DNA of 64,000 nucleotides from Croceivirga thetidis (GCF_012272815.1 NZ_JAAWWL010000001.1:1301146-1365145), one strand, 5' to 3'. Counted from the first letter of the stretch, positions 822 through 46,237 are shown. A program made the numbers and translations. Notes: generated by a model not told the origin, from the sequence alone.

Positions 822-923
822 TTTATTGTGTTTTTAATTGATACTCGTACAAAATTCTAAATCAATTGGTTATTCTATGTAGTCGAATCCTAGAGATTTG
901 TAGCCAAAAAAAATTCTAAGATT

Positions 924-2222: not shown

Positions 2223-2266
2223 ATTGTAGTAGGAATAGGTCCCTTTAAAGTATAAAATTTTTCAGT

Positions 2267-30619: not shown

Positions 30620-30697
30620 CCCTTAATAAGATATTTGAATATCCATTCAAAGTCTTATCTTAAATTATTATTTCAACCACTTTAAAATTGTAAAGCC

Positions 30698-31273
30698 ATG
30701 GAAACTTGGTTCGAAGCTTTGACGCTTTTTCAGAAAATTTATTGGATTGTAGCCATCGTAGGCTCTGCTATTCTATTGGTACTTATCGCCATGACCTTAA
30801 TTGGTGGTGATGTTGACGACATGGGAGATGTTGATGCTGATATTGATGGGGATACAGGAATAGGTTTTCAGTTTTTATCGTTCAAAAACTTGATGGGTTT
30901 TTTGACCATTTTTGGTTGGTCCGGTATTTCATGTATCGATAACGGACTTTCGACTGGTGCAACCATTGCAATATCCGTTTTTTGCGGATTGCTTATGATG
31001 CTAACGATGGCTTCATTGTTCTACTATTTGGCAAAATTGCAAAGTAGCGGTACGCTTAAGCTAAAAAATGCAAAAGACCAAATAGGAGAGGTATACCTCA
31101 CGGTGGGTGCCAAGCGTAGTAGAATCGGTAAGGTCAGTGTTAATGTTCAAGGTACGCTTCGTGAACTTCAAGCATTGACCGATGAAGACCAAGATTTGGT
31201 TCAAGGTAACGTGGTGAAAGTACATGATGTCACAGATACAGGAATTTTAATAGTCAATCTTTTAAATAAATAG
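30698..31273 (+). CDS. NfeD-family membrane protein (flotillin partner)
   Basis: N-terminal TM helices plus a C-terminal OB-fold-like region (VGAKRSRIGKVSVNVQGTLRELQA). Directly upstream of a flotillin gene. Confidence 0.65.
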   Translation: METWFEALTLFQKIYWIVAIVGSAILLVLIAMTLIGGDVDDMGDVDADIDGDTGIGFQFLSFKNLMGFLTIFGWSGISCIDNGLSTGATIAISVFCGLLMMLTMASLFYYLAKLQSSGTLKLKNAKDQIGEVYLTVGAKRSRIGKVSVNVQGTLRELQALTDEDQDLVQGNVVKVHDVTDTGILIVNLLNK

Positions 31274-31277
31274 AAAT

Positions 31278-32723
31278 ATGCTAATACTACCATTACAATT
31301 GGGCGGAGGCGGCACTTTGCTTGCCATTGGCTTCGCCATCCTCTTTTTCTTTATAATTATTATATCCTTCATTAGAAGGTACAAACGCTGTCCCTCAGAC
31401 CGTATTCTTGTGGTCTATGGAAAGGTAGGTACTGGTAATTCTGCCAAGTGTATTCATGGTGGAGCCGCCTTTGTTTGGCCCGTTATCCAAGACTATGAGT
31501 ATTTGGATTTGACCCCTATTTCAATAGAGGTCGATTTGCAGAACGCCCTTAGTAAACAGAATATACGGGTTAACGTACCTTCTCGTTTTACCATAGGTAT
31601 TTCAACCGAACCCGGTGTAATGCAGAACGCGGCTGAGCGCTTATTGGGCCTTGGTCTTCCAGAGGTTCAAGATTTGGCCAAGGAAATCATTTTCGGTCAG
31701 TTACGTTTGGTTGTAGCATCTATGGATATTGAAGAAATCAATGCCGATAGAGATAAGTTTTTGACAAATATTTCTGCAAGTGTTGAGTCTGAATTGAAGA
31801 AGGTTGGTCTCAAGTTAATTAACGTAAACATCACTGATATTGTTGATGAATCTGGTTATATCGAAGCTTTGGGTAAGGAAGCTGCCGCTCATGCAATCAA
31901 TGCCGCACGTAAATCAGTTGCTGAAAAAAATAGGGATGGTTCTATTGGTGAGGCAAATGCACTACAAGATGAGCGTACCCAGGTAGCAGCCGCAAATGCA
32001 AAAGCAGTCGAAGGTGAGAACATTGCCAAAATAGATGTTGCCAATTCAGATTCACTGCGAAGACAGCGAGAGGCTGAGGCTGAGCGAACCGCCATCGCTG
32101 CTGAGAAGGTTCAGTCTGCTAAAGCTTTGGAAGAGTCCTATGCAGCTGAAAGAGATGCTGAAGTTGCAAGGGCAGAACGTGAGCGAAGCTCTCAATTGGC
32201 TGATATTGTTGTCCCTGCTGAGATAGACAAACAGAAAGTTGAAATTGAAGCCGAAGCTGAAGCTGAAATGATTCGTAGAAGGGCCAAAGGTGAGGCTGAC
32301 GCAATTCTGTTTAAAGCTCAGGCAGAAGCTAAAGGTATTTTTGAAGTATTGACCAAGCAGGCCGAAGGTTTGGATAAAATAGTTCAAGCAGCCGGTGACA
32401 ATCCAAAAGATGCAGTTTTGTTATTAATTGCTGATAAATTACCTGAGTTGGTCGAAAAGCAGGCTGAGGCTATTAAGAATATCAAAATTGATAAGGTTAC
32501 GGTTTGGGATTCTGGTCAGAAGTCTGAAGATGGAAAGAACTCGACAGCCAACTTTATTTCAGGTATGTACAAGTCGGTACCACCCTTACAGGAAATGTTC
32601 AATATGGCAGGTATGCAATTACCTGAGTATTTAAAGGGTAAGGACATTACCGTTGATGATGGTAAAGGAGCAAAACCAGCTCAGAAATCACAGAAAAAAA
32701 CCGATTCAAAATCGGAAGAATAA
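31278..32723 (+). CDS. flotillin / SPFH (band-7) family protein
   Basis: N-terminal TM, SPFH domain, then a long Ala/Glu-rich coiled coil (EAEAERTAIAAEKVQSAKALEE...). Confidence 0.8.
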   Translation: MLILPLQLGGGGTLLAIGFAILFFFIIIISFIRRYKRCPSDRILVVYGKVGTGNSAKCIHGGAAFVWPVIQDYEYLDLTPISIEVDLQNALSKQNIRVNVPSRFTIGISTEPGVMQNAAERLLGLGLPEVQDLAKEIIFGQLRLVVASMDIEEINADRDKFLTNISASVESELKKVGLKLINVNITDIVDESGYIEALGKEAAAHAINAARKSVAEKNRDGSIGEANALQDERTQVAAANAKAVEGENIAKIDVANSDSLRRQREAEAERTAIAAEKVQSAKALEESYAAERDAEVARAERERSSQLADIVVPAEIDKQKVEIEAEAEAEMIRRRAKGEADAILFKAQAEAKGIFEVLTKQAEGLDKIVQAAGDNPKDAVLLLIADKLPELVEKQAEAIKNIKIDKVTVWDSGQKSEDGKNSTANFISGMYKSVPPLQEMFNMAGMQLPEYLKGKDITVDDGKGAKPAQKSQKKTDSKSEE

Positions 32724-32738
32724 AGAGCTTATTTTGAA

Positions 32739-32767
32739 AGACGGCGGATTTTTCCGCCGTTTTTTTA
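32739..32767. terminator. bidirectional terminator between flotillin (+) and gpsA (-)
   Basis: ACGGCGGA (32741-32748), TTTTT loop, CCGCCGT (32754-32760), then TTTTTT. On the minus strand it follows the gpsA stop. Confidence 0.75.
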
Positions 32768-33766
32768 ACCAGGTTCTGACTCTGAACCGCTTTCTAATTT
32801 TAAAAGCCCTCTGAATGCATCATGAACCGTATTGTCTTCATAAAGCACTTTATAAACCTCTTCTGAAATGGGCATATGAACGTTGTAGTCTTGTGCCAAT
32901 TCCATAACAACTTTAGCAGTTTTCACCCCTTCGGCAACTTCTGACATTTCTTCTATTATCTCATCCAGTTTTTTCCCTTTTCCCAATTGAAAGCCTACAT
33001 GTCGGTTTCGACTTTTGGTACTACTACAGGTCGCAACCAAATCACCCATGCCGGCAAGACCAGCGAAGGTTCTTCGCCGACCACCCATTGCCGTGCCCAA
33101 TCTTGTAAGCTCTGAAAGTCCACGTGTAATAAGAGCTGCTCGAGTATTATCTCCAGCGTTTGCACCATCACCCATTCCTGTAGCAATGGCCATAATGTTC
33201 TTTAACGCACCACCGAGTTCACATCCAATAACATCATTATTCGTGTAAACCCGAAATAGACCTGAATTGAAAACGCCTTGTAGTTTTTTGCCAATCACTT
33301 CATCAACCATGGCAATCACGGCTGCAGCCGCTTGACCATTGTGAATTTCCTTGGCTAGATTTGGACCGGTTAGAACGCCTGTTGGATGCCCAGGTAGGAT
33401 TTCTTCGATAACTTCGGTCATCCTTTTTTTGGTACCCATTTCTAATCCCTTTGAAAGGCTTACAATTGGTATCCAGGGTCTAATATGGGCTTTTGCTGTT
33501 TCCAATACTGTTCTGAAATTTTGTGATGGAATGCCCATTACCAAAACATCAGAATTTTTAACGGTTTCTTCTATTGAAGCTGAGGCTTTAAGATTTTTGT
33601 TAAGGAGTGCTCCCGGAAGGTATTTTGAATTGGTGCGATGTTCGTTGATTTCATTAACGGTATTTTCGTTTCGTGCCCAAATAGTAGTATTTGCATTCCG
33701 GGCAGTTAAGGAGGCAACTGTGGTTCCCCAAGATCCTCCTCCCAACAATCCAACATTTAATGGCAT
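32765..33766 (-). CDS. gpsA: NAD(P)H-dependent glycerol-3-phosphate dehydrogenase
   Basis: VGLLGGGSWGTT Rossmann motif, GpsA-like length. The ORF-track start at 33781 is TTG; the ATG at 33766 (MPLNVGLLGGGSWG) is the likely start. Confidence 0.85.
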   Translation of the reverse strand: MPLNVGLLGGGSWGTTVASLTARNANTTIWARNENTVNEINEHRTNSKYLPGALLNKNLKASASIEETVKNSDVLVMGIPSQNFRTVLETAKAHIRPWIPIVSLSKGLEMGTKKRMTEVIEEILPGHPTGVLTGPNLAKEIHNGQAAAAVIAMVDEVIGKKLQGVFNSGLFRVYTNNDVIGCELGGALKNIMAIATGMGDGANAGDNTRAALITRGLSELTRLGTAMGGRRRTFAGLAGMGDLVATCSSTKSRNRHVGFQLGKGKKLDEIIEEMSEVAEGVKTAKVVMELAQDYNVHMPISEEVYKVLYEDNTVHDAFRGLLKLESGSESEPG

Positions 33767-33808
33767 AGGCAATGGTTTCAAAGTGGATTGCTTGAGAAGG
33801 CAATCCTA

Positions 33809-36800
33809 TTAGTTATTCAGTTCAGCTACGAACAGGTCCCTTACCTGTTCTACGTATTTATCCAAATCTTTCAATTTCCATAGTCCAGTATCCACGGGTT
33901 CCAAAACGACAACTTCTATATGGGTAGGACGTAATAATTTGGCACCTTTCGGCATAGCCTGGTATGCATTTTTGATAACTATTGGAATGATTGGAACTCC
34001 AGCTTGTATGGCCAAATGAAATGCACCTTTTTTGAACTTGCCCAGCTCTGCTGTACCACTTCTTGTACCTTCAGGGGCAATAGCGACTGAAATCCCACTT
34101 TTTAAGGCATCCACTGCTGGTTTCATGGCCTCTATAGCCTTGGCTTTGTTACTTCTGTCTATATAGATAGCACCTAGGGCCTTAAATATTGGACCAATTG
34201 GGCTTTTCTCCAATTCCTTTTTAGCTACACCTGTAAAATCATTACGGAGCAACTTCATCACAATAAAAAAGTCTGCTGCACTTTGATGGTTAAAGCAAAA
34301 AACAGCTGGACGAAAATCGGTCAGGTAGCGTTTTCCCCGAACTGAAATCTGCAACCCAGCAAGTCTGGTACCCAAATCCCCAATGGTTGCAAAGGTAGTA
34401 TTGGCAGCTTCTTGTCTTGACATTGTAGTCAAGCCTTTAATTGCTCCCCTTACCGCTGAAGGATAGATGCTAGCGACCGCCAAGCCCGTACGAAGACCGT
34501 TCACCACAGATTTTTCTTGTGGTTCTTCAAATCTTAGAATTGGCCAATCGTTTTCAAAAGCAACTTGTGACAAGGCGTTATCTGGATTTACGGCAACGGG
34601 CTTTCCTACTATCTTGAATAAGGGATAATCATCAAAGCTGTCCGAGTAAAAATAACTTTTAGAAAGGTCAATATCGTTATCTCGAGCAAATGAACGGGCT
34701 GCTTTGGCCTTACCTTCACCCCAACACATTTCTTCGATTCGACCCGTGAACTTCCCGTTTTGCAGCTCCATTCTGGTGCAGTATATATCAGATATACCCA
34801 GCTCTTTGGCTATCGGCGCAACTTGATACGCGGTGGCAGCCGAAACGATTACCACGCGGTGCCCTTTTTCTAAATGTTTTTCAATCAGTTTTCTTGACTC
34901 AGGATAAATGGTTGCGGCTAAAAACTCGTCATAGACATCCTGCCCTACATCGTAGAATACCTTTTCTGGAATTCCCTTGACCCCTAGGGCTGCAATTTTG
35001 GTTAATACCTCAAAATCTCGATTTCCAAATGAATACACCAGCGCTGTAATAAACTGTGTGATGTATTCTTTTGGGGTGGTTTCACCGCTAAATAATCTTG
35101 TTCGTACAAATCGTTTGGCAGAAAAGTCGTTAATCAGTGTACGGTCCAAATCAAAATAAGCAGCGATATGATTTCCTTCCTCTTCTTCAAGTGTTTCTTT
35201 TTTCGAATGTATTGTAGAAGCTTGCGGAACCAATAATTTCTTACTGGATATCAAGTCCATGCTTTTTTCGCTTGGTTCTACCTCAAATTCATTGAGGTAG
35301 GTGAGTCTGGTGGTAAGGTCTTCAAGTTGAACCATCCACTCTTCAAGACCTTTTTGGTTTATATGCTGTTGTTTTAGTCCAAGACCTGCATTTTCGGCAA
35401 AACGATAAGCGTTCTGCAAGAATGGTTTTGAAACGCTATCCAATCTTGTGATTCTACTTTGCCAATGCAGTTCTTTTCCTTTGAACATGCAAAGCTCCAG
35501 GAAATCATCTTCCGAATATGGGTCTTCATTGTCCCAATTGAGTAGGGTATAGCAAACAACTTTGTAAGCATCTAAATAAGACAGGAGCAGTGCCCTTGAA
35601 ATGAACAAGTGCTGTTTTTTAAGTATTTCAGAAATATCCCTTGAGGAATCACTTAGGATATCGCGCCAATCTTTATGAAACCGAAATAGTTCCTCTTCAA
35701 TTTCTTCACTGAATTTTGCCTTATTAGTATAGAAAAATTCGAATTTAAATAGATTTCTGAGGTTCATGATTTCCTCCCAGAAATGAACAATTCTGTTGTC
35801 TGAAGTATCATCCTTGATTTTAGCCAAGGCCATCTCTACAAAAGCTGAATGATACAAATGCCCCGCGGTCATATTTGCATAATAAGTAGCAGGAAGGTAT
35901 TCTGATGAAACAATGCTGTACTGTGCTTTTTGACCGGCCCTGCTTTTTTGTAGAATATTTGCCCCTTGTAGCAGATTTAAAGCTTTTTGGACGCTTACAG
36001 CTATAGGGAAACCCCTATCCATCAAGGCGTTTTCTTGTTTTTTACCGATGTACTCCATTAACCGCTTCACCTTGAATTCGATTTCCTTTTTGGTCAAGGC
36101 AAAATCATTCAATAAAACCGTACATATTAGCGAAACAGTTGATACTGGTGTTATTCTTGACATTCTGGTGATTACATCAAATGCAAAAAAGGGCAGTGTA
36201 TTTTTATTTGCATAGCTGTCTTCACTTAATTGAGGTACGGTAACATTGTGTGTTTCATCAATTTCAACGGGGTCGCCAAACCGTATTGCAGCGCGGCCAT
36301 AATCACTGCCAAGACTTCGAACATATTTAACACCTTCAGCTAGGTTTTCAGATTTCTTTTTGGCGCCACGACCTTGTTGGGTCATTTCTTTAACATCAGG
36401 GATGAGGTCGTAAACAATGGAAACCGGCACATATTTTATGGCCCTTGAACTCTGTTTTTCGGCGTCCATTATGTATTTGAGAATACCCATTTGCGGATGC
36501 AGAATCTTACCGGTTCTAGAACGGGTACCTTCAATATTCCATGTAAGGTGATCGCCTTTATCGATGATGGTCGAAATGTAATGCCTAAGCGTTACTTTGT
36601 AAACAGGATTATCTTTAAAACTTCGCCTTATAAATACGATACCTGCACTTTTCCCTAATTGTTTCATACCAGGGAAAGCCAAATTGATTCCACCAAAAGA
36701 ATAGGGAACGGGCATACCGTATCGGGCCAATGTTGCTATCAAAACCAAGGTGTCTAAGTAGGTCTTGTGCGTCATGATGAATGCAACGGAATTCAACCGC

Positions 36801-37051
36801 ATTAACTTCATCAATTTTTTTATCCCCTTTGGGTCAACATCTATTTTTTCGCTGTAAGCACGAGATAGGATGTAATCGAAGCCTTTGACCGATACCATTT
36901 TGGCAATAGGATGTTGCTCGGCATATAGTTCTCTGATATACTCTGTGGCTTCTTTTTGGACTTCTTTGAAATCGAGCTTATGTTCTTTGGCGGTTTGCCT
37001 TAAGACTTCTTGAAATTTTTCATTCTTTATGATATTGTCCATACTGCCCAA
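33809..37051 (-). CDS. tri-domain fusion: PlsB-type glycerol-3-phosphate acyltransferase + HAD-IB phosphatase + PlsC-type lysophosphatidate acyltransferase
   Basis: N-terminal domain has PlsB blocks I-IV: AFIMTHKTYLDTLVL (HxxxxD), GIVFIRRSF, WNIEGTRSRTGKIL, KYVPVSIVYD. The middle domain has HAD motifs: YFDLDRTLI (DxDxT), VVIVSAAT, a conserved Lys region, SDSFDD. The C-terminal domain has PlsC blocks: FCFNHQSAADFFI, AIYIDRSN, IAPEGTRS, VPIIPIVI. 1080 aa. The track start at 37051 is TTG; an ATG at 37042 is the likely start. Confidence 0.85.
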   Translation of the reverse strand: MGSMDNIIKNEKFQEVLRQTAKEHKLDFKEVQKEATEYIRELYAEQHPIAKMVSVKGFDYILSRAYSEKIDVDPKGIKKLMKLMRLNSVAFIMTHKTYLDTLVLIATLARYGMPVPYSFGGINLAFPGMKQLGKSAGIVFIRRSFKDNPVYKVTLRHYISTIIDKGDHLTWNIEGTRSRTGKILHPQMGILKYIMDAEKQSSRAIKYVPVSIVYDLIPDVKEMTQQGRGAKKKSENLAEGVKYVRSLGSDYGRAAIRFGDPVEIDETHNVTVPQLSEDSYANKNTLPFFAFDVITRMSRITPVSTVSLICTVLLNDFALTKKEIEFKVKRLMEYIGKKQENALMDRGFPIAVSVQKALNLLQGANILQKSRAGQKAQYSIVSSEYLPATYYANMTAGHLYHSAFVEMALAKIKDDTSDNRIVHFWEEIMNLRNLFKFEFFYTNKAKFSEEIEEELFRFHKDWRDILSDSSRDISEILKKQHLFISRALLLSYLDAYKVVCYTLLNWDNEDPYSEDDFLELCMFKGKELHWQSRITRLDSVSKPFLQNAYRFAENAGLGLKQQHINQKGLEEWMVQLEDLTTRLTYLNEFEVEPSEKSMDLISSKKLLVPQASTIHSKKETLEEEEGNHIAAYFDLDRTLINDFSAKRFVRTRLFSGETTPKEYITQFITALVYSFGNRDFEVLTKIAALGVKGIPEKVFYDVGQDVYDEFLAATIYPESRKLIEKHLEKGHRVVIVSAATAYQVAPIAKELGISDIYCTRMELQNGKFTGRIEEMCWGEGKAKAARSFARDNDIDLSKSYFYSDSFDDYPLFKIVGKPVAVNPDNALSQVAFENDWPILRFEEPQEKSVVNGLRTGLAVASIYPSAVRGAIKGLTTMSRQEAANTTFATIGDLGTRLAGLQISVRGKRYLTDFRPAVFCFNHQSAADFFIVMKLLRNDFTGVAKKELEKSPIGPIFKALGAIYIDRSNKAKAIEAMKPAVDALKSGISVAIAPEGTRSGTAELGKFKKGAFHLAIQAGVPIIPIVIKNAYQAMPKGAKLLRPTHIEVVVLEPVDTGLWKLKDLDKYVEQVRDLFVAELNN

Positions 37052-37063
37052 AACCGTTAACTC

Positions 37064-38254
37064 CTAATTTAAGAAAAACAAACTTCTCTTTTTCTTGTTC
37101 CAGTAAAAAGGATAGAGAAAGCGTTCTATGAAAGTTGTAGTGTCTTCAACGGTCCTACCTTCAATGTTGGCTTGCAAGGCATTTGCCGTAATCAATAGCA
37201 CACTGACATTTGCGCCTAATCCTGAATGACTACCATAAACTTCAATGTTGGCAATATCTTTTCTGAAACTTTCTGCTTCCATACAATGTTTCCAAGGCAA
37301 AAGACCGTCGGTTTTTGTATAAATACAGGTTATAGGAACATTGGGTATTGGGTCCAATTCTTCTAAAAAACGCTTGTTTCGCTCTTTTAATGATTTACCC
37401 CTAAAGAATTCAAGAACACCATTCACAGGGGTCTTCATGTCCATAACTCCCCAAACAGGTGAACCAATGGTCACAATTTGCTCAACCATATCAGGATGTC
37501 GGTTGGCCATAATTTTAGCGAAAAGACCACCGCCACTCCAACCCACTATATTGACTTTTTGCCCACGGGTACGAAAAATATCTTCTAGTTTTTCTTCTAG
37601 CCTTGGTATATAATGAGATTTGATCAGGTTGACACCTTGATCCCATTTGTAGGTTTTGAAACCCAAAGAAGTCAAATAGCGACGCACAAATGAGGTTGAA
37701 TAATCATCTCCTAAATAGGGCGGAATCAAAAGAACTGGCCTGCCATCTCCTTTAATTCGTTTTGGTATAAAGGGATAAAATGCATAAATCGATGTCCATT
37801 CTACCAAAGACCTTCCTTCCAATAGCATATTGAAAAGTGGTGGCTTGGGAATCTTTAAATTGATTTGAGCAATTTGACGCTTGAAACTTTCCAGAACATT
37901 TTTGGTGAGTTCAGTTGTTTTCGGATCACTTTTTTCGACAAGATCCTCAACGACATGTTCAAGTATGTTTATCAAGGTATAGTACTCACGGCTCGGCCCA
38001 AGTTCGTCGCAGATTCGTATACATTTTTGAAATGAGGAATTAATATCACTTTCATTATCGAGAGTTAACTTCTTGATAAGAGGAAGTAAATCTTCAGAAT
38101 CTTGATGGTCTTTAAAGTGTTTTGAAAATATTCGTTTCAAGTCTCGAACCGCAAGTTTGTTCTTTTTGCCCAAATGGGTAATGAACTCGATAAAAGCTTC
38201 GTATAAATGCAAATAGTCGTTCATGGTTTGTGGGGGATATGCTTGTTTAGCCAT
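37064..38254 (-). CDS. lipase-like alpha/beta-hydrolase with N-terminal helical domain
   Basis: The C-terminal half carries a nucleophile elbow VNIVGWSGGGLF, a candidate Asp (TKTDGLLPW) and a candidate His (GSHSGLG). An alternative ATG at 38224 would give an ATGA overlap with the upstream gene stop. Confidence 0.55.
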   Translation of the reverse strand: MAKQAYPPQTMNDYLHLYEAFIEFITHLGKKNKLAVRDLKRIFSKHFKDHQDSEDLLPLIKKLTLDNESDINSSFQKCIRICDELGPSREYYTLINILEHVVEDLVEKSDPKTTELTKNVLESFKRQIAQINLKIPKPPLFNMLLEGRSLVEWTSIYAFYPFIPKRIKGDGRPVLLIPPYLGDDYSTSFVRRYLTSLGFKTYKWDQGVNLIKSHYIPRLEEKLEDIFRTRGQKVNIVGWSGGGLFAKIMANRHPDMVEQIVTIGSPVWGVMDMKTPVNGVLEFFRGKSLKERNKRFLEELDPIPNVPITCIYTKTDGLLPWKHCMEAESFRKDIANIEVYGSHSGLGANVSVLLITANALQANIEGRTVEDTTTFIERFLYPFYWNKKKRSLFFLN

Positions 38255-39162
38255 GTAATGATATCTTCTTCGACCTCTTCGCTGTTTATTTCGTTAAGCA
38301 TTTCATGTCGGCCTCCTTTGTAGAGATTGAAAGTCAGTTCATTGTTGCCATTTTCTCTATAATTTTTGGCAACTTTAGTGACCCCCTTGCCCATTTCTCC
38401 AACGGGATCCTCATCTCCTGAAAATATCAGTATAGGGAGGTCATCAGGGGTACTTATAAAGGCTTCAGGTTTATTCAATTGTCGCGAATTGGTCAATATG
38501 TCTGCAAAAACGCCAATTGAAAAATTTTCTATTCGATAAGGGTCGGCTTCAAAAATATCAACTGCAGTTTCATCACTACTTATCCAATCAAGTTTGGTTC
38601 TATTGGGTTTGAATTTTTTATTGAATTCATCAAAAAAGAATGCCCTTAAGGTTTCGTTGCTTCGTTCCCTACCTCTGAAAGCACTAACAAGTTTTGTGCT
38701 TGCCAGCCCAAAATGACCGAGTCCTTTTATAAAATTTGCGGTTCCTGATAAAATAAGAGCGTCAATATCCGAGCCGTGTTCTAGTACATATTTACGACTT
38801 AGCAAAGATCCCATGCTATGCCCAAATAGAATAAACTTCGTGTTAGGGTGTTCCTGGCACATCAATGTAGTCAAAGAATGCATATCTGCAACAGCATCCC
38901 CAAAATAATCGTCGCCATCATAATAACCGAACAATCGTTTTATTTCGGCAGTTTTTCCATGGGCGCGATGGTCGTTCGCATACACAGTAAAACCTTCTTT
39001 TTGTAAGCGATTTGCTATGGTTTCATACCTGCCCGCATGTTCACCTATACCATGTGCAATTTGAATAACACCTCTAAGAACAGTCCCTTCTGCTGCCTCC
39101 CATTTATAGTAGCAGATGACTTCCCCATCCTTGGCGGTAAATGTATTTGTTTTGTAAGGCAT
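38221..39162 (-). CDS. alpha/beta hydrolase, lysophospholipase / monoacylglycerol-lipase family
   Basis: HGIGEHAGRY and GHSMGS motifs typical of the Hydrolase_4 / lysophospholipase L2 / MGL family. 313 aa. ATG confirmed. Confidence 0.7.
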   Translation of the reverse strand: MPYKTNTFTAKDGEVICYYKWEAAEGTVLRGVIQIAHGIGEHAGRYETIANRLQKEGFTVYANDHRAHGKTAEIKRLFGYYDGDDYFGDAVADMHSLTTLMCQEHPNTKFILFGHSMGSLLSRKYVLEHGSDIDALILSGTANFIKGLGHFGLASTKLVSAFRGRERSNETLRAFFFDEFNKKFKPNRTKLDWISSDETAVDIFEADPYRIENFSIGVFADILTNSRQLNKPEAFISTPDDLPILIFSGDEDPVGEMGKGVTKVAKNYRENGNNELTFNLYKGGRHEMLNEINSEEVEEDIITWLNKHIPHKP

Positions 39163-39164
39163 CT

Positions 39165-41003
39165 TTATCTGCTTAAAAAGGCTTTGATGAGGTTACTAAA
39201 CTTTCGCTTATCGGCAACAGTTCCTGAAAGTTTAAGGCGCTGTTGAATTTTAAGCTCGTCGAAAAGAAATTTTTTCTTGTAAAGTGCGTAGAGATTTTCA
39301 TCCTCAATTTCCATGAGCATTTTTGGATCTAGTGCTGTTGTCTTTTTAATTGAAATAGGTTCTTTAGTCAAGTCAATTTCCCAACATTCGCTACTTTCTC
39401 CCATATCAACCCCAATATGATATAGGCCTTTATATTTTTTTACGAGAGCGGTTTCTTTCTTGAGGTATCTTTTTAATGCGTTGAAAAATACGGTGCTCTC
39501 ACTCTTTTTCTTAGCCTCTTTTGCAGGTGTTTTTTTCTTATCCCTTGCTAAGATTAATTTTTCCAATTCATTTGCTGACTCTCGAATGTATCTGGAGAAC
39601 AAATAGGCATCTGGCATTGTCTTCGCATCAGATGTCGGTGTAATACTTATATTGCCGTTATAGCTAAAAGCCGCGATAATCAGTCCAAAACCATTGACCA
39701 CCGGAGTCAACGGAAACATAGCTACCACTTTATGGCCGTTGAGGTACAACGTATTTTTTGGTCCAGGCACATTGGTGATGGTGACATTAAAAGGTGGCCT
39801 GTGTAGGTCTTTAATATTGTACTTGCTGTAGATACGTGCCGCTAAATTGGCCAAGCCGAATGGAACCGCATCTGCCATTTTTACCAAGGTTTTTGCACCC
39901 ATAGTTTTATGCCTTGCTTTACCAAGCATTGTCTGTTCTTGTATATATTCCAGACGTTCCAATGGTTCTTCAATATGCGTGGCCAGCTGAATCATCATAT
40001 TGGCTATTTGGTTGTTATGCGAAGTATCGTTTTCGGCGCGTATTGAAATCGGAACATTAGCGACCAATGGCTGCATTGGTAATTTTTCTTTTTCAAGTAG
40101 ATATCTGCGCAAAGCTCCGGCACAAATGGCAAGCACAACATCATTAATACTACCACCAGCCAGTTTTCGTAGACCATTCACCCTATCAAAAGACAGAATT
40201 GCGGTGCCCCAAGTTCTTTTTGGCGAAATATTTCCATTAAAAATGGTATTTGGCACAGGATATCTTGCCGTTGCAAATTCCTTTTGGATACTTAGCGTTT
40301 TAGAAGCTCTTGTTTTGACAAGCGCAATTGCGGTGTTGGCAACGGATTTGGGTAGTTTTAGGGGGTTTTTAAAAAAACCGTAGCTACTTTTTAGTAGCAA
40401 ACTCAAGTCGTCAGGCAGCGGATCTGGTTGAAATTTTTTGATTTTTGATTTGTCGATGGGCTTTACTTTATCATCTTTCTCAAACAAAGTTCCTAAAAGA
40501 CCTACGCCTGAACTTCCATCAATCATTACATGATGAACTTTACTTACAATGGCAACAGAGCCTTTGGGCACTTGTGGGATTTCGTCAATACCCTCAATAA
40601 AATGAATTGACCAAAGGGGTCTTCTCAAATCGAGGGGAGCACTGAAAATTCGTGAGGTTGTTCTACGCAAAGACTCCCAATTTGAGGGATCTGCCAACTT
40701 CATGCGGTTGAGATGAAGATCTAATTCAAAATTTGGATCATCAACCCAATATGGATAATCCAAATCCATGGGAACACGCATTAAACGCTGTCTAAATTTT
40801 GGCATTAAATGTAGCTTCGAAGCAACAATTTTTTTGAAGTCCTTGAAATTAAGTGAACCTTCAACAACCAATAGCGTGGCAATATGCATCGGACTTGTGG
40901 GAGACTCGGCATAAAGAAAGGTTGCATCGGTACCTGAGACTTGTTCGTATTTGCCTTCCAACACCTCTTGTGCAATATCTTTAAAATCAATTTTTGATGC
41001 CAT
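39165..41003 (-). CDS. wax ester synthase / acyl-CoA:diacylglycerol acyltransferase (WS/DGAT) fused to C-terminal SCP2-like lipid-binding domain
   Basis: HHVMIDGSSG (HHxxxDG catalytic motif), the ATFLYAES...PMHIATLL N-terminal block, PKFRQRL, PYWVDD, LDLRRPLWSIHFIEG. The last roughly 130 aa (GLYHIGVDMGESSECWEIDLTKEP...KLSG) match an SCP2 sterol-carrier fold pattern. 612 aa versus about 460 aa for a typical WS/DGAT. Confidence 0.85.
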   Translation of the reverse strand: MASKIDFKDIAQEVLEGKYEQVSGTDATFLYAESPTSPMHIATLLVVEGSLNFKDFKKIVASKLHLMPKFRQRLMRVPMDLDYPYWVDDPNFELDLHLNRMKLADPSNWESLRRTTSRIFSAPLDLRRPLWSIHFIEGIDEIPQVPKGSVAIVSKVHHVMIDGSSGVGLLGTLFEKDDKVKPIDKSKIKKFQPDPLPDDLSLLLKSSYGFFKNPLKLPKSVANTAIALVKTRASKTLSIQKEFATARYPVPNTIFNGNISPKRTWGTAILSFDRVNGLRKLAGGSINDVVLAICAGALRRYLLEKEKLPMQPLVANVPISIRAENDTSHNNQIANMMIQLATHIEEPLERLEYIQEQTMLGKARHKTMGAKTLVKMADAVPFGLANLAARIYSKYNIKDLHRPPFNVTITNVPGPKNTLYLNGHKVVAMFPLTPVVNGFGLIIAAFSYNGNISITPTSDAKTMPDAYLFSRYIRESANELEKLILARDKKKTPAKEAKKKSESTVFFNALKRYLKKETALVKKYKGLYHIGVDMGESSECWEIDLTKEPISIKKTTALDPKMLMEIEDENLYALYKKKFLFDELKIQQRLKLSGTVADKRKFSNLIKAFLSR

Positions 41004-43176: not shown

Positions 43177-43464
43177 CTAAGCTACCAGTTTTTTGAATCT
43201 CTTCTGACCCTCTTTGAAATCACCTTTGATTTCGTTTAAGATATCAAAAACCAATTCTTGTTGTTTGGCCGCCAATTTCAATCCTCCTTTTACAGCTTTG
43301 TCAGCAACACCTTGCCACTGTTCTGTAATTTCAATTGATGTGGATACAAACTCTTCGGTTTTTGTTAGGGCAACTTGGTTTGCGTTAAGTGCCATATCCT
43401 TGGTCTTCTTTGCATAGTTTGCAAAAATTCCCTTCTTATTTTTATTTACTTTCTTATTTCCCAT
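43177..43464 (-). CDS. phasin-like small amphipathic protein (paralog 1)
   Basis: 95 aa, predicted all-helical and Lys-rich, with the KQQELVFDILNEIK motif shared with the two neighbouring paralogs. Confidence 0.5.
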   Translation of the reverse strand: MGNKKVNKNKKGIFANYAKKTKDMALNANQVALTKTEEFVSTSIEITEQWQGVADKAVKGGLKLAAKQQELVFDILNEIKGDFKEGQKRFKKLVA

Positions 43465-43502
43465 TACGGTTTGAATTAAGATTAGTCCCTATTTGAACTG
43501 AA

Positions 43503-44381
43503 TTATTTTTTGTTGTCAGCCAACCAAGCCGCTATAGCTTCAACTCCTGCCTCAGCTCCTAGTTCTGCTTGTTTTTTCAAGTCAGTAACGCTGGTATTTT
43601 TAAAAGTTGAACCCGCTTCATCAAGAATCGACTTGATTTTAGTTTCAGTTGCCTGTGCCAATTGCGCAAAAGTTTCGATACCATTCTCCTTGAAAATACG
43701 CTCAAGTTTAGGACCAACACCCTTAATAGCTTTAAGGTCATCTTTAATAACGGCCTTAACAGTGCTCTCAACCTTCGCCGCTTTTTGCTTTACCTCGGCT
43801 ACTTTCACAGAAGCTTTTTTAGAGGTTTTTGTAGCTTTAGCAGTAACTGTTTTCTTTGTTTTCCCAACATTTTTCTTTGTTTGCTTCAAGGCATCATCAA
43901 CCAAGTCTTCACCCTTGTCAATTACCTTTTTAGCCTGCTTAAGAGCGTCTTCCTTGACCTCATTAAATTTGGCTACGCCCTGATTTTTTAGGTTTTCAGC
44001 AGTTTTCTCAACCTTTTGAACGATTGGGTTTTCTATAACTTTCTCTTTAATGGTTTCAGAAACTTCCAATACCTTTTTACCTACAGGTGTTTTAGATACA
44101 TATTCAAAGGCACGCTCAATGGTGTCCTCATCATAACCAACCAAATCCATGGTCTTTTCTTTTCCTGTGTTGAACTGATTTTTTACTGTTGCTGCAGTTT
44201 CAAAAACCAAATCCATTTGTCTTTTACGTAATGGCTCGGTTTTTTTAACCATTTTCTTGGTCAATTCTTGCCATTTCTCACCATGCTCTATGGTCGTGTT
44301 AATTGTTGCCATTGTCACATTTATCAATGACTTATTCAAGCTTTCGCTTTTTTTAGTTCTGTTTTTTGTTGCTGTTGCCAT
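43503..44381 (-). CDS. phasin-like protein with Lys/Ala-rich linker and C-terminal helix-hairpin-helix domain (paralog 2)
   Basis: N-terminus shares KRQMDLVFETAATVK with the paralogs. The middle has KTKKTVTAKATKTSKKASVKVAEVKQKAAK (histone-H1-like). The C-terminus has DDLKAIKGVGPKLERIFKENGIETFAQLAQAT (HhH). Confidence 0.5.
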   Translation of the reverse strand: MATATKNRTKKSESLNKSLINVTMATINTTIEHGEKWQELTKKMVKKTEPLRKRQMDLVFETAATVKNQFNTGKEKTMDLVGYDEDTIERAFEYVSKTPVGKKVLEVSETIKEKVIENPIVQKVEKTAENLKNQGVAKFNEVKEDALKQAKKVIDKGEDLVDDALKQTKKNVGKTKKTVTAKATKTSKKASVKVAEVKQKAAKVESTVKAVIKDDLKAIKGVGPKLERIFKENGIETFAQLAQATETKIKSILDEAGSTFKNTSVTDLKKQAELGAEAGVEAIAAWLADNKK

Positions 44382-44425
44382 GATATATTTTGTTTAAATA
44401 CTGTTGTTCTTAATTAATTATGATG

Positions 44426-44461
44426 CAAATCTAATTTTGAGTAGTTACAAATGAGTTGCAA
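44426..44461 (-). promoter_or_regulatory. candidate SARP-box promoter: TTGCAAC-N4-TTGTAAC direct repeat (minus strand 44461-44443) plus TAGATTTG -7 box (44433-44426)
   Basis: Reverse complement of 44443-44461 is TTGCAACTCATTTGTAACT. Fourteen nt after its second TTG lies TAGATTTG, which matches the Bacteroidota TAnnTTTG -7 element. This is 45 nt upstream of the ATG at 44381. Confidence 0.5.
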
Positions 44462-44467
44462 TCGAAA

Positions 44468-44719
44468 CTAGTTCTTGACAATTCTCTTTTTGATACCGTA
44501 GAGGGCATCAAAAACAAGTTCTTGTTGGGCAGCAGTGATGTCCAATCCTTTTTTCACAACTTTTGAGGTCAAATCCAAAGATTTATAACCTAAGCCAATA
44601 GAAACATCGAATGCTTTTTCTGTTGTGGAAAGTGCAAAGTCGTTTGCTTTGTTTGCCAATCCAAGAGCGTTATCCGCTACTTTTTCTACAATGTTCTTTT
44701 TCGTTTTTTTAGTTGCCAT
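44468..44719 (-). CDS. phasin-like small amphipathic protein (paralog 3)
   Basis: 83 aa, with AAQQELVFDALYGIKK near the C-terminus matching paralog 1. ATG confirmed. Confidence 0.5.
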   Translation of the reverse strand: MATKKTKKNIVEKVADNALGLANKANDFALSTTEKAFDVSIGLGYKSLDLTSKVVKKGLDITAAQQELVFDALYGIKKRIVKN

Positions 44720-44756
44720 AACTATATATTTTTCTAATGTTTTCTATTTTATGGTG

Positions 44757-44792
44757 CAAACATAGAATCCCATAGTTACAAATGAGTTACAA
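44757..44792 (-). promoter_or_regulatory. candidate SARP-box promoter: TTGTAAC-N4-TTGTAAC direct repeat (minus strand 44792-44774) plus TATGTTTG -7 box (44764-44757)
   Basis: Reverse complement of 44774-44792 is TTGTAACTCATTTGTAACT. The repeat-to-TAnnTTTG spacing is identical to the 44426-44461 element. It is 38 nt upstream of the ATG at 44719. Confidence 0.5.
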
Positions 44793-44866
44793 GTCTGGTT
44801 GACTATTGATTTTGAATGAAGAAAGCTGCGAAGGAAATATCGATGTTTGGAATGGGAAGATGGGAA

Positions 44867-45673
44867 TCAAGCAATAGACTCAATCTTCTTGAGCAAATCC
44901 CGAGTTGCTGGTAGTGGTGTAATACCATACTCTTCTTCTAAAATATCAGCACATTTTTGATAAGTTTTTAATGCTTGCGGCCTATTTCCTTTTTGGATAT
45001 AAGCAGACATTTGAATTCGATAAGCATCTTCCCATGTTTTATCAATGGCAATTGCTTGTTGAGCAAGCCGTACACTTTCCATTGGGTTGGTGGCTATTAA
45101 TAACTCTGCCAAATTCACCAAGGCACCCAATATCAAAACCTGAATTTTCTCTCGCTCTTCTGACGACCAATCTTCAAAAATGCGATTTGGAAGATAAGAC
45201 CCTTGATGCAATGCAATGGCCATGTTGTAGGCTTCTGCTGCAATCTCAGGAAAATCACCCAAGGCTTGATTTCCAATGATGATGTATTTCTCAATGGCAT
45301 CAACATCGATCCAAACTAAATTTGAATTTAATTGATAAGTTACCCCCTGCCGTTCTACATAAATCGCTTCGGTTCTAGATGGTCGGTTTGGTTCCAAAAC
45401 TTTGTTGACCCCATGCAGCGCTACTTTAAAATCACGATCGTCACCATCTTCCCATAAGTGGTCCATGATGTGCTCCTTGTGTAACGCATGTTTGTTTCGA
45501 TAAGAAATAAGGTATTGAATTAATTGAAGGGTCTTGTCCCGACCCCATTCTTTTGCATTGACCTTTTCTCCATCACGCCAAAGCACAAATTGACCTAGCG
45601 TTTGGAATTTAATTGGAGCTTCATTCTGAAACTTTTTATGTTGCTCCAATTGATTTGTCAATGCTGCCTTCAA
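44867..45673 (-). CDS. SARP-family (OmpR-type winged helix + BTAD) transcriptional activator
   Basis: IKFQTLGQFVLWRDGEKV...DKTLQLIQYLISYRNKHALHKEHIMDHLWEDGDD is an OmpR/SARP-type DNA-binding domain. The C-terminus (VRLAQQAIAIDKTWEDAYRIQMSAYIQKGNRPQALKTYQKCADILEEEYGITPLPATRDLLKKI) is a classic BTAD. No in-frame ATG precedes the DNA-binding domain, so the start is TTG at 45673, 45661 or 45649. Confidence 0.7.
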   Translation of the reverse strand: MKAALTNQLEQHKKFQNEAPIKFQTLGQFVLWRDGEKVNAKEWGRDKTLQLIQYLISYRNKHALHKEHIMDHLWEDGDDRDFKVALHGVNKVLEPNRPSRTEAIYVERQGVTYQLNSNLVWIDVDAIEKYIIIGNQALGDFPEIAAEAYNMAIALHQGSYLPNRIFEDWSSEEREKIQVLILGALVNLAELLIATNPMESVRLAQQAIAIDKTWEDAYRIQMSAYIQKGNRPQALKTYQKCADILEEEYGITPLPATRDLLKKIESIA

Positions 45674-45685
45674 AATTTGAAATTT

Positions 45686-46237
45686 CTATTTGGTCGTAGA
45701 TGTTTTAGCCTTGGTAGTTCTTGAAGGCTTTTTGGTATTTGCTTGGTTCATAGCATCAACCTTTTTAGTGAGTTCCGCAACCGATTTTGTGAGTTTTGAA
45801 AGACTATCTTGCATTATCTTGAAATCTGATTTAGAAGCGTTACGCCATTGGTCGATAGGTACTTTTTCCATAAGTTCCTCACCATATTCGCTTAATTGCT
45901 CCTGCAAATTGGCAACCTGTTTTCTTGGGTCTTTTAAAGTCTCTTTGAGCATTTTTGGCCCTGTGGCTGCAACTGATTTAAAAAGCGAGAAACTCTTGGT
46001 CAAAATGTTTTCCTGTTCTTCAGAAGTACGGTCGGTCGTAGCTTCCATTGTTAAATCGGCCAAATGTTGTTGTATAAAATCTACGGCCTGTTTAAAATCA
46101 GAGAAGTTTAAATCTTCACCCCCTTGAACGTGTGAAACGTTACCACGCCATTGCACTTCAGATTCACCATTTTCGTCATAGATTTTTTGGGTGAACCGAA
46201 CCATAAATGAGGCGGTCTGTGCTGCTTTTTTTGCCAT
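45686..46237 (-). CDS. hypothetical helical protein (first gene of the minus-strand block)
   Basis: 183 aa, no recognisable domain, predicted helical with a Lys/Thr-rich tail. ATG confirmed. Lies 12 bp upstream of the SARP gene. Confidence 0.4.
   Translation of the reverse strand: MAKKAAQTASFMVRFTQKIYDENGESEVQWRGNVSHVQGGEDLNFSDFKQAVDFIQQHLADLTMEATTDRTSEEQENILTKSFSLFKSVAATGPKMLKETLKDPRKQVANLQEQLSEYGEELMEKVPIDQWRNASKSDFKIMQDSLSKLTKSVAELTKKVDAMNQANTKKPSRTTKAKTSTTK

Follow-up and report, generated by a model that had tools for sequence, protein, structure and literature searches.

The 64,000-nt stretch of the Croceivirga thetidis genome analysed here (the window; GCF_012272815.1, NZ_JAAWWL010000001.1:1301146-1365145) carries on its minus strand a single reading frame that, in an ORF scan, spans a TTG codon at 37051 to position 33809. 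An earlier note on this DNA had described it as a 1080-aa polypeptide; the single ORF stands, but the TTG is probably not its start, the three extra residues being unshared by homologues. Judging from sequence, the ATG at 37042 is likely the true start, giving a tri-domain CDS of 1077 aa (33809..37042, minus strand; stop codon at 33809-33811). The equivalent methionine is the N-terminus of a 100%-identical NCBI protein from Croceivirga thetidis and of essentially all homologues, which are 1073-1083 aa long. Separate, abutting plsB and HAD-plsC genes in Parvibaculum and actinobacteria, together with an interrupted ORF in two MAG loci (L006 and L069), might suggest that the long ORF is an artefact in which a frameshift or an overlooked stop codon has merged two such genes. 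This explanation, the frameshift part of which the earlier note had itself raised, is vanishingly improbable and already refuted by comparative data, because the full-length ORF is uninterrupted in 66 independent loci (genomes and MAGs; scan of genome contigs) and the same protein length recurs across >120 clusters at 90% identity. The single-ORF loci include the isolate genomes of Bizionia arctica, Polaribacter filamentus, Tenacibaculum aquimarinum, Patiriisocius marinus and Lacinutrix sp. WUR7.

The tri-domain gene lies in a minus-strand operon in which a WS/DGAT-SCP2 gene, two alpha/beta-hydrolase genes, the tri-domain gene and gpsA follow one another in this order, and from the TetR gene to gpsA all intergenic gaps or overlaps are ≤34 nt. 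At the operon head, a TetR_C_23 regulator gene (42350-43012) overlaps or abuts that of an ABC1/UbiB-type atypical kinase (41016-42353). The WS/DGAT protein (39165..41003; HHVMIDG at aa 157; TIGR02946 score of 396, above 310; PMC10351704) has a C-terminal SCP2 lipid-binding domain and is predicted to be the DAG-consuming terminal acyltransferase. It is followed by a Hydrolase_4 alpha/beta-hydrolase with a GHSMG motif that resembles monoacylglycerol lipases and lysophospholipases (38221..39162) and, directly upstream of the tri-domain gene, by a lipase-like alpha/beta-hydrolase with a GWSGG motif and weak PGAP1 and Palm_thioest matches (37064..38254). The gpsA gene (32765..33781; PRK12439 score of 498.7, above 436) encodes a G3P dehydrogenase. 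Each of these four neighbours occurs in 20/20 Flavobacteriaceae loci whose flanks are long enough; beyond this family, the lipase-like hydrolase is found in 10/11 other fused loci and the WS/DGAT in 9/11 rearranged Saprospiraceae-type fused loci. In some Saprospiraceae, Microscillaceae and Chloroflexota loci no WS/DGAT lies within 10 kb, which counts against the role in storage-lipid synthesis proposed below.

An accessory set travels with the cluster (43177..46237, minus strand), comprising a 183-aa protein, a 268-aa BTAD-domain regulator and three small Lys-rich paralogues (83 aa, 292 aa with an HHH tail, and 95 aa) with weak phasin/apolipoprotein similarity. The maximal hydrophobic moments of these phasin-like proteins fall between the median and the 95th percentile of shuffled sequences, with the 292-aa protein (ph292) at about the 95th. 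The HAD domain of the tri-domain protein is the cluster's sole phosphatase, no other being conserved there. Lacinutrix and Oceanihabitans have a gene of the yeast App1 PAP family (APP1_cat) at a distance of 5 kb from the cluster; the window contains none. A scan for sigma-70 promoters and terminators, which does not cover Bacteroidota promoters, gave counts not above shuffled expectation. One terminator-like hairpin is located directly after gpsA (32715-32701).

Pfam and NCBIfam matches divide the tri-domain protein into GPAT, HAD and LPLAT modules with intact catalytic residues, as the earlier note had read from motifs. The HMM mapping it proposed placed GPAT_C, HAD-IB and AGP_acyltrn models all far above chance, and the Pfam Acyltransferase profile matched two stretches of the protein (1.8e-44). 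Every PlsB, HAD and PlsC motif that had been quoted was located in the translation (ATG numbering is used here), and catalytic residues were nowhere substituted in an alignment of 38 homologues. No transmembrane segment is predicted in the protein.

The N-terminal module (aa 2-587; 35282..37039) is, by its sequence, a PlsB2-like member of the PlsB/GPAT family, and sn-1 acylation of G3P is predicted for it. It matches PRK03355 (NCBIfam) at 1.8e-136 and 456.7 bits, below the cutoff of 721 that is passed by the split plsB genes of Nocardia and Parvibaculum, and it is likewise below the PlsB equivalog cutoffs (TIGR03703, 179.7 vs 618.5; PRK04974, 181.1 vs 610). The match covers profile positions 187-774 of 787; because the alignment begins at position 187, the module lacks the first ~190 aa of PlsB/PlsB2. 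Blocks I-IV (36407..36769) read HKTYLD (92-97), FIRR (137-140), EGTRSRTG (171-178) and VPVSIVYD (205-212), with H92/D97, F137, R139, R140, E171-G178 and P206-S208 invariant in the 38 aligned homologues. A GPAT_C helical region (PF19277; aa 222-554; 35381..36379) scores 1.3e-56 and 192.8 bits (cutoff 25), and in this region Foldseek matched human GPAT1 (8E4Y) at 7.7e-17. A poorly conserved linker of low pLDDT (aa 588-619; 35186..35281) separates the GPAT module from the HAD domain.

The central module (aa 627-823; 34574..35164) is an HAD-IB phosphatase domain (PF12710, 2.6e-34; TIGR01490, 157.8 bits vs a cutoff of 98.3) with a phosphoserine phosphatase (PSP)-like Rossmannoid core and a helical C1 cap. 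Its four motifs are DLDRT at 631 (D631-x-D633-x-T635), VVIVSAAT at 730 (Ser734), GEGKA at 775 (Lys778) and SDSFDD at 800 (D801/D805), and none of these seven residues varies among the 38 aligned Flavobacteriaceae homologues. In diverse HAD-LPLAT proteins across phyla the catalytic residues are almost as constant, with D631, K778, D805 and the acyltransferase residue H919 each conserved in 39/39. The earlier note had likened this domain to lipin/Pah1 phosphatases, an analogy left unsupported because the domain is phosphoserine-phosphatase-like: structurally it is closest to 3FVV and PSP, its top 50-60 fold matches include no lipin/Pah structure, and it has no lipin/LNS2 Pfam match. Lipin/Pah1 enzymes share the Mg2+-dependent DxDxT chemistry and the proposed PA-to-DAG reaction but belong to another HAD branch than the PSP-like C1-cap HAD-IB type found here. 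SerB, the identity given in some database annotations, was rejected on its scores (TIGR00338, 33.2 vs 144.15; PRK11133, 20.8 vs 413).

The C-terminal module contains a PlsC-type LPLAT core (aa 896-1024; 33971..34357; NHQSAAD at 918, YIDR at 960, PEGTRS at 990 and VPIIP at 1016) that scores 118.5 bits against the TIGR00530 AGP_acyltrn cutoff of 102.95 (NCBIfam). H919/D924, D962/R963, P990-S995 and V1016/P1017 are invariant in the 38 homologues, and 5KYM matches the core at 9e-25. Before the core, two long conserved helices are predicted (aa 849-894; 34361..34498), which may stand where PlsC has its N-terminal two-helix membrane-binding motif; structure comparison aligned 218/232 residues of 5KYM. 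Block II/III arginines are kept in both acyltransferases (R139/R140 and R174/R176; R963 and R994). In PlsB motifs these arginines are classically assigned to binding of the acceptor phosphate, so their retention in both modules fits dephosphorylation after both acylations. AlphaFold2 gave a pLDDT of 68.7 and a pTM of 0.34 for the full-length protein, and 80.5 and 0.51 for the HAD-LPLAT part alone; with pTM this low in either model, the inter-domain geometry is unreliable. The three modules are not combined in any solved structure.

The tri-domain protein occurs in hundreds of Bacteroidota genomes, and the 66 genomes or MAGs with the fused single ORF belong to Flavobacteriaceae, Saprospiraceae, Microscillaceae and two Chloroflexota bins. 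It corresponds to a two-gene pair described before in actinobacteria, plsB and HAD-plsC, fused into one. In the actinobacterial loci retrieved, these genes abut in the order that the domains have in the fusion; in Parvibaculum the order is patatin, gpsA, WS/DGAT, plsB, HAD-plsC. Two metagenomic proteins join HAD-LPLAT to the WS/DGAT instead, in the order HAD-LPLAT-WS/DGAT with all motifs intact (P0148) and in the opposite order, WS/DGAT-HAD-LPLAT (P0154); both are singletons on short contigs, which counts against the reading proposed below. The triple fusion and the HAD-LPLAT/WS-DGAT fusions suggest a single pathway for GPAT, LPAAT, HAD phosphatase and DGAT.

The same three modules (PlsB2-type GPAT, HAD-IB and PlsC-type LPLAT) are found in the atf9-plsB-plsC operon of Rhodococcus jostii RHA1 and in M. 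tuberculosis Rv2482c (PlsB2)-Rv2483c (HAD-AGPAT 'PlsC')-Rv2484c (Tgs)-Rv2485c (LipQ), a cluster of this type (PMC10699116). Shared with these operons are the linkage to WS/DGAT and lipase/esterase genes and the idea of the HAD domain as the missing PAP (PMC4850399, PMC10699116), and the Rv2483c-like traits of an HAD-IB domain N-terminal to LPLAT in one chain and of linkage to GPAT (here fused) and WS/DGAT are present. Unlike the actinobacterial pair, however, the modules here form one polypeptide of only ~30-34% identity to it, whose GPAT part lacks the N-terminal ~190 aa of PlsB2 and reaches only 457 bits vs the PRK03355 cutoff of 721. The operon also goes beyond the actinobacterial one in its GpsA, the SCP2 tail on its WS/DGAT, the ABC1 kinase, TetR and the phasin-like proteins. 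The closest relatives of the C-terminal half, at 42-48% identity, are two-domain HAD-LPLAT proteins of Parvibaculaceae and Myxococcota ('PAP/AGPAT', Galván et al. 2023), whose genes are similarly clustered with WS/DGAT and gpsA (PMC10351704) but separate from the GPAT gene; the Parvibaculum GPAT, which is of full length, qualifies as a PlsB2 equivalog at 725 bits. Structures are solved for E. coli PlsB, human GPAT1 and T. maritima PlsC, each of which has one function, in the synthesis of membrane phospholipids. The earlier note had cited only two-domain HAD-IB/LPLAT fusions as precedent; the fused chain is as it described, but the novelty is reduced, as a 2016 paper had already reported the split pair within a TAG operon (PMC4850399).

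We consider it probable that the tri-domain protein is a three-module enzyme of a TAG operon that takes G3P to DAG. A G3P-to-DAG route feeding TAG is the best reading because of the conserved operon, the split pair in the same order and the HAD-LPLAT/WS-DGAT fusions, and the DAG-making role put forward in the earlier note is strongly backed by the linkage to G3P dehydrogenase and WS/DGAT and by these Rosetta-stone fusions. The protein would be a soluble or peripheral enzyme of a dedicated TAG-storage operon in marine Bacteroidota, having arisen by the joining of abutting plsB and HAD-plsC genes that are separate in Proteobacteria and Actinobacteria. GpsA would reduce DHAP to G3P, the PlsB2-like module would acylate G3P at sn-1 to LPA and the PlsC-type module would acylate LPA at sn-2 to phosphatidate, from which the central HAD-IB module would remove the phosphate to yield 1,2-diacylglycerol. 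The adjacent WS/DGAT-SCP2 would then make TAG from DAG, and the two alpha/beta-hydrolases are probable mobilising lipases. We infer these substrates, PA rather than LPA for the HAD domain included, as well as the step order, acyl-CoA as donor and any channelling between the modules; mycobacterial PlsB2 is an sn-1 acyltransferase with acyl-CoA as its donor (PMC10593935). The HAD domain has already been proposed as the PAP in the Rhodococcus/Mycobacterium atf9-plsB-plsC operon (Amara 2016, PMC4850399), and the Bacteroidota cluster was noted by Galván 2023, where the gene is named only "AGPAT/hydrolase" (PMC10351704), the sole relevant paper in our literature searches for TAG accumulation in Flavobacteriaceae and for a trifunctional GPAT/PAP/LPAAT. 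Counting against the proposed route, PA phosphatase activity has never been shown for the HAD-LPLAT family, no member of which is biochemically characterised (PMC10351704), and TAG accumulation by cluster-bearing Flavobacteriaceae was not found in the searched literature.

Alternatively, only the GPAT and LPAAT modules might act in the pathway, making phosphatidate that a separate PAP elsewhere in the genome converts to DAG, with the HAD domain being a small-molecule phosphatase (for G3P, as in Dunaliella GPDH, phosphoserine or histidinol-P), a PGP phosphatase, or a regulatory or structural element. Its closest characterised HAD-IB relatives do use small soluble phosphoesters (PSP, histidinol-phosphate phosphatase and phosphorylcholine phosphatase), and the bacterial PAPs characterised for TAG synthesis are PAP2-type (PMC8401914), both of which count against a PAP role. 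We nevertheless regard this alternative as unlikely: the domain is below the SerB (33 vs 144) and histidinol-phosphatase (120 vs 280) equivalog cutoffs, and a G3P phosphatase beside GpsA and a GPAT would be futile. The HAD domain is also catalytically intact, tied to LPLAT across phyla and fused to WS/DGAT in both orders, in a cluster without another conserved phosphatase. The APP1_cat genes of Lacinutrix and Oceanihabitans, which could supply an alternative PAP, were rejected since such a gene is near the cluster in only 2/82 loci.

With the operon still serving neutral-lipid synthesis, the HAD domain might instead dephosphorylate LPA, so that one acyltransferase makes LPA, the HAD domain converts it to MAG, and the other acyltransferase and/or the WS/DGAT proceeds to DAG and TAG. 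WS/DGAT enzymes such as Acinetobacter AtfA accept MAG, and the cluster encodes a MAG-lipase-like Hydrolase_4. PF23270, presumably the HAD-like domain at the N-terminus of plant GPATs, is in the precomputed Pfam lists of some homologues; a local Pfam search at E≤1 did not recover it, and we therefore do not claim homology to plant GPATs. Land-plant GPAT4/6/8, the only characterised HAD-like + LPLAT fusions, likewise carry an HAD-like DxD domain directly N-terminal to LPLAT in one chain, and their phosphatase acts on the acyltransferase's own lipid product, LPA to sn-2 MAG rather than PA to DAG, which counts against a PAP role (PMC11127019). They differ, however, in making MAG for cutin and suberin with a single acyltransferase domain. 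A MAG route would leave two G3P/LPA-type acyltransferases partly redundant, and both keep the block II/III arginines expected for phosphorylated acceptors, making LPA phosphatase activity, in our estimate, quite improbable.

The enzyme converting PA to DAG for bacterial TAG storage is unsettled, including in M. tuberculosis, where TAG underlies dormancy; Rhodococcus PAP2 enzymes are poorly expressed, and the HAD domain fused to PlsC was put forward in 2016. To the proposed G3P-to-DAG route the Bacteroidota triple fusion and the HAD-LPLAT/WS-DGAT fusions add gene-fusion evidence for a single pathway, and a single, apparently non-transmembrane polypeptide opens the whole G3P-to-DAG sequence to assay and mutation. 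Many marine Flavobacteriaceae and Saprospiraceae, major degraders of algal blooms, carry a complete conserved island for TAG synthesis and mobilisation, which bears on marine carbon storage and on the engineering of TAG production. In its strongest form, to which we give about even chances, the protein would be a one-chain 'Kennedy metabolon' passing G3P through LPA and PA to DAG without releasing PA to the membrane-phospholipid pool. If so, the HAD-IB module would give the first demonstration of an HAD-type phosphatidate phosphatase in bacteria, the tri-domain enzyme with the WS/DGAT-SCP2, lipases and phasin-like coat proteins would constitute a previously unstudied TAG storage organelle system in marine Bacteroidota, and Rv2483c would, by orthology, be the long-missing PAP of mycobacterial TAG synthesis.

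A single reading frame runs without interruption on the minus strand from 37051 (TTG) to 33809, in a window of about 39% GC. Because the N-termini of homologues match the ATG at 37042, we took the gene to be 33809-37042 (1077 aa) and numbered residues from that ATG; the Pfam and NCBIfam searches were run on the TTG form, in which raw positions are 3 higher. A protein of 1077 aa on record for Croceivirga thetidis (Flavobacteriaceae) is 100% identical, and more than 120 clusters at the 90% identity level, 64-84% identical to the tri-domain protein, are all 1073-1083 aa long. We scanned one genome per GTDB species, which gave 80 loci scored by tblastn with the window's proteins. The tri-domain gene is one full-length open frame in 66 of these loci, which excludes an annotation or sequencing artefact. 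In two loci from metagenome-assembled genomes (L006 and L069) the frame is broken, with the longest stop-free frame covering 71-74% of the match; each is an assembly frameshift or a pseudogene. Transmembrane segments are absent from the protein (maximum 19-residue Kyte-Doolittle mean of 1.49).

The motifs that the earlier note had read from the sequence were all found in the same relative positions, and models for all three of its proposed domains, GPAT, HAD and LPLAT, match the protein. Pfam Acyltransferase (PF01553) matches two stretches (1.8e-44), GPAT_C (PF19277) matches at 1.3e-56 and HAD (PF12710) at 2.6e-34. The best NCBIfam model is the GPAT model PRK03355 (456.7 bits, E 1.8e-136), whose match spans profile positions 187-774 of 787 and does not reach the 721-bit equivalog cutoff. 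Scores for PlsB models of the E. coli type are about 180 bits where about 615 would be required. The protein passes TIGR01490, the HAD-IB 'hyp1' subfamily (157.8 vs 98.3), and TIGR00530, AGP acyltransferase (118.5 vs 102.95). It stays under the cutoffs of the SerB model (33 vs 144) and of the equivalogs for histidinol phosphatase (120 vs 280; 95 vs 400). Homologues are frequently named 'putative phosphoserine phosphatase/1-acylglycerol-3-phosphate O-acyltransferase' in databases; given these sub-cutoff scores, the phosphatase part of that name is unsupported, and the name also misses the GPAT module.

Solved structures among the sequence relatives match only one module at a time: PlsC 5KYM (9e-25), the GPAT 9VUQ (6e-24), the HAD-IB protein 3FVV of unknown function (9e-17) and human GPAT1 8E4Y (2e-13). 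The earlier note had argued for a PA phosphatase from the HAD fold of lipin/Pah1. No lipin/Pah structure is among the top 50-60 fold matches of the HAD domain, in whose ranking phosphorylcholine phosphatase stands further down, and the domain has no match to the lipin Pfam family even at E<=10, so that the argument is a superfamily-level analogy only. Plant GPAT4/6/8, in which a HAD-like domain N-terminal to the LPLAT turns the enzyme's own LPA product into MAG (PMC11127019), are a closer architectural precedent for the HAD-LPLAT arrangement.

In an alignment of 38 homologues of the tri-domain protein, the HX4D and DxDxT residues are unchanged, and the invariant positions are H92, D97, F137, R139, R140, E171-G178 and P206-S208 in the GPAT module, D631, D633, T635, S734, K778, D801 and D805 in the HAD domain, and H919, D924, D962, R963, P990-S995, V1016 and P1017 in the LPLAT. 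In a second alignment, of 39 HAD-LPLAT proteins that span a wide phylogenetic range and include those of the split genes of Parvibaculum and actinobacteria, D631, K778, D805 and H919 are each present in 39/39 and D633 in 36/39. This near-invariance indicates that the HAD domain is retained as a predicted active phosphatase across the HAD-LPLAT family, in contrast to plant GPAT5/7, whose phosphatase site has decayed (PMC11127019). In a metagenomic three-domain lineage represented by P0122 (1014 aa), Pro replaces the His of the GPAT-module HX4D (LTPKSYLD), with intact motifs in the HAD and LPLAT; to judge from this substitution, its first acyltransferase may be inactive.

The structure of the full-length protein was predicted at pLDDT 68.7 and pTM 0.34. 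The low-confidence stretches of this model are residues 262-395, 588-619 and 843-854, the second of which is the GPAT-HAD linker and is unconserved as well. A model of the HAD-LPLAT half reaches pLDDT 80.5 and pTM 0.51, and neither model shows how the active sites are oriented to one another. The LPLAT core is preceded by a conserved pair of long helices (849-873, 876-894) that appear to occupy the place of the membrane-binding two-helix motif of PlsC.

Between 46237 and 32765 every gene is on the minus strand, with gaps or overlaps of at most 34 nt from the TetR gene onward. In transcription order they encode a 183-aa protein (45686-46237), a BTAD-domain (SARP-like) regulator (44867-45673), three paralogous small Lys-rich proteins of 83, 292 and 95 aa (43177-44719), a TetR_C_23 regulator (42350-43012), an atypical ABC1/UbiB-type kinase (41016-42353), a WS/DGAT with a C-terminal SCP2 domain (39165-41003; TIGR02946, 396 bits vs 310), a Hydrolase_4 alpha/beta-hydrolase (38221-39162; nucleophile elbow GHSMG), a lipase-like alpha/beta-hydrolase (37064-38254; GWSGG), the tri-domain protein and, last, the G3P dehydrogenase GpsA (32765-33781; PRK12439, 498.7 vs 436). 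The WS/DGAT catalytic motif HHVMIDG is intact, and no other phosphatase gene lies within the operon block. Taken together, the block has a source of G3P, two acyltransferases for glycerolipids, a phosphatase, a terminal acyltransferase that would consume DAG, and putative lipases. These add up to a complete predicted Kennedy pathway to TAG, with mobilisation as well.

Several further features of the region were observed. The kinase and TetR_C_23 genes overlap by 4 nt at the operon head and are found in many Flavobacteriaceae loci but missing from some; plant ABC1 kinases are associated with lipid droplets and plastoglobules. The Lys-rich proteins share a 'QQELVFD' motif, and the 292-aa member is rich in Lys/Ala in its middle part and ends in an HHH_5 tail. 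Pfam gives them weak similarity to phasin (E 0.007) and apolipoproteins (0.004-0.006). By analogy with PhaF/TadA, they are candidates for coating lipid droplets or tethering DNA. Their maximal hydrophobic moments fell between the median and the 95th percentile of shuffled sequences, the 292-aa protein reaching about the 95th. The SCP2 sterol/lipid-carrier domain of the WS/DGAT comprises aa 507-607, an architecture already noted in Bacteroidota by Galván et al. 2023 (PMC10351704); might it hand over DAG or acyl-CoA? A hairpin with a perfect 9-bp stem (GGATTGCCT..., 33785-33806) takes up most of the 27 nt that separate the tri-domain stop from the gpsA start and may be an intra-operon RNA structure. 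Converging on the cluster from the plus strand (29465-32723) are genes for a divergent beta-ketoacyl synthase (below every FabF/FabB cutoff), a 191-aa protein and a flotillin-like SPFH protein, which are absent from the cluster synteny in Lacinutrix and Aquimarina.

The 12-gene block is collinear between the window and Lacinutrix sp. WUR7, and in Aquimarina the five small/regulatory genes are relocated downstream of gpsA. Flavobacteriaceae-type loci (at least 60% identity) were counted only where at least 8 kb was available on both sides (n = 20). The WS/DGAT, both hydrolases, GpsA, the 183-aa protein and the BTAD gene are each found in 20/20 of these and a phasin-like paralogue in 19/20. In fused loci of lower identity (44-59%, for the most part Saprospiraceae/Chitinophagales) the genes have another order and strand, with the WS/DGAT in 9/11 and the lipase in 10/11. 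Linkage that persists despite such rearrangement is good evidence that the cluster genes share a function. No WS/DGAT was found within 10 kb at three Saprospiraceae loci, the Microscillaceae locus or the short Chloroflexota contigs. The 183-aa, BTAD and Lys-rich genes form a five-gene set that accompanies the TAG cluster on either side depending on genus (43177-46237, minus strand, in the window; 559-3666 in locus L001; 14318-17210 in L002). Near the cluster, at a distance of about 5 kb, a gene of the yeast App1 phosphatidate-phosphatase family (APP1_cat) occurs only in Lacinutrix and Oceanihabitans (L001, 18121-19125; L058, 10850-11851), and none is present in the window.

The fusion is distributed over Flavobacteriaceae, Saprospiraceae/Chitinophagales, Microscillaceae (L079) and two Chloroflexota-binned contigs. 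The genes on the latter are full-length at 44-45% identity (L052, 4557-7841; L054, 1485-4781), on contigs of GC 0.46-0.49 without recognisable cluster neighbours, and could reflect either horizontal transfer from Bacteroidota or mis-binning. Elsewhere the system is split, with a PlsB2-type gene followed by an abutting HAD-LPLAT gene in the same order as in the fusion, as in Parvibaculum (L072) and the actinobacterial loci L074, L076, L077 and L078. The plsB genes of Nocardia (1020 bits) and Parvibaculum (725 bits) pass the PRK03355 cutoff and include an N-terminal stretch of about 190 aa that the fused form is without. The Parvibaculum order is patatin-lipase, gpsA, WS/DGAT, plsB, HAD-plsC, and that of the Propionibacteriales locus is acyl-CoA synthetase, plsB, HAD-plsC. 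In an exhaustive search of 50%-identity representatives, three-domain proteins formed only the clusters P0121, P0122, P0124, P0125 and P0126 (35-49% identity), against large numbers of stand-alone proteins, which are short PlsB-like (about 580-640 aa), long PlsB2-like (about 770-810 aa) or HAD-LPLAT (about 470-510 aa). Other metagenomic fusions join HAD-LPLAT to WS/DGAT (P0148, with every catalytic motif intact), WS/DGAT to HAD-LPLAT (P0154), a carboxylesterase to a PlsB-like GPAT (P0259) and HAD-LPLAT to a histone-H1-like (HC2) tail (P0157); with P0153, grouped with them, these are singleton clusters on short contigs in which read-through errors are possible. Fusion of WS/DGAT in both orders is expected if HAD-LPLAT supplies DAG.

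The cluster probably covers the whole route from G3P through DAG to TAG. G3P would be made by GpsA and acylated at sn-1 by the N-terminal module, a position suggested by the homologous PlsB2 of mycobacteria, an enzyme that uses acyl-CoA (PMC10593935). Acylation of sn-2 would fall to the C-terminal module, the HAD domain would convert PA to DAG, and WS/DGAT-SCP2 would form TAG. The arginines of blocks II and III of the PlsB motifs are classically tied to binding of a phosphorylated acceptor. They are kept in both acyltransferase modules, and a route through MAG would leave one of the two acyltransferases redundant; both points favour PA over LPA as the HAD substrate and it is unlikely that the domain is an LPA phosphatase like the plant enzymes. 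It is also unlikely that the protein stops at PA, with DAG coming from a separate PAP and the HAD domain having another substrate or role, since scores against small-molecule phosphatase equivalogs are sub-threshold, a G3P phosphatase would be futile within the operon, and an intact HAD is persistently linked physically to LPLAT and WS/DGAT. The outcome predicted in the earlier note, G3P to DAG and neutral lipid, is thus largely right, the lipin rationale being its weak part.

The underlying system is known. Amara et al. 2016 described an atf9-plsB-plsC operon in Rhodococcus and mycobacteria, in which PlsC, orthologous to Rv2483c, joins an AGPAT to a HAD domain; the HAD was proposed, without test, as the Kennedy-pathway PAP (PMC4850399); the Rv2482c-Rv2485c cluster is listed in PMC10699116. 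Angala et al. 2023 characterised PlsB2 and PlsM and placed Rv2483c among 'other PlsCs' of unconfirmed activity (PMC10593935). Galván et al. 2023 reported 'complete Kennedy pathway' clusters in Actinomycetota, Alpha- and Gammaproteobacteria, with 'PAP/AGPAT' and sometimes a G3P dehydrogenase, and wrote that the function of the AGPAT-HAD protein 'remain[s] to be elucidated' (PMC10351704). The novelty implied at first reading was therefore overstated, the system being known from actinobacteria (PMC4850399) and beyond (PMC10351704). Our literature search found no paper noting the extra PlsB-type GPAT module in a Bacteroidota protein, and none assaying any family member. What is new is the triple fusion with an N-terminally shortened GPAT, in a system that is known but biochemically uncharacterised. 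The fusion adds Rosetta-stone evidence on the phosphatase of the bacterial TAG pathway and provides a single protein on which that step can be tested in practice. It also draws attention to a TAG storage island that has gone unstudied in marine Bacteroidota, although these are abundant.
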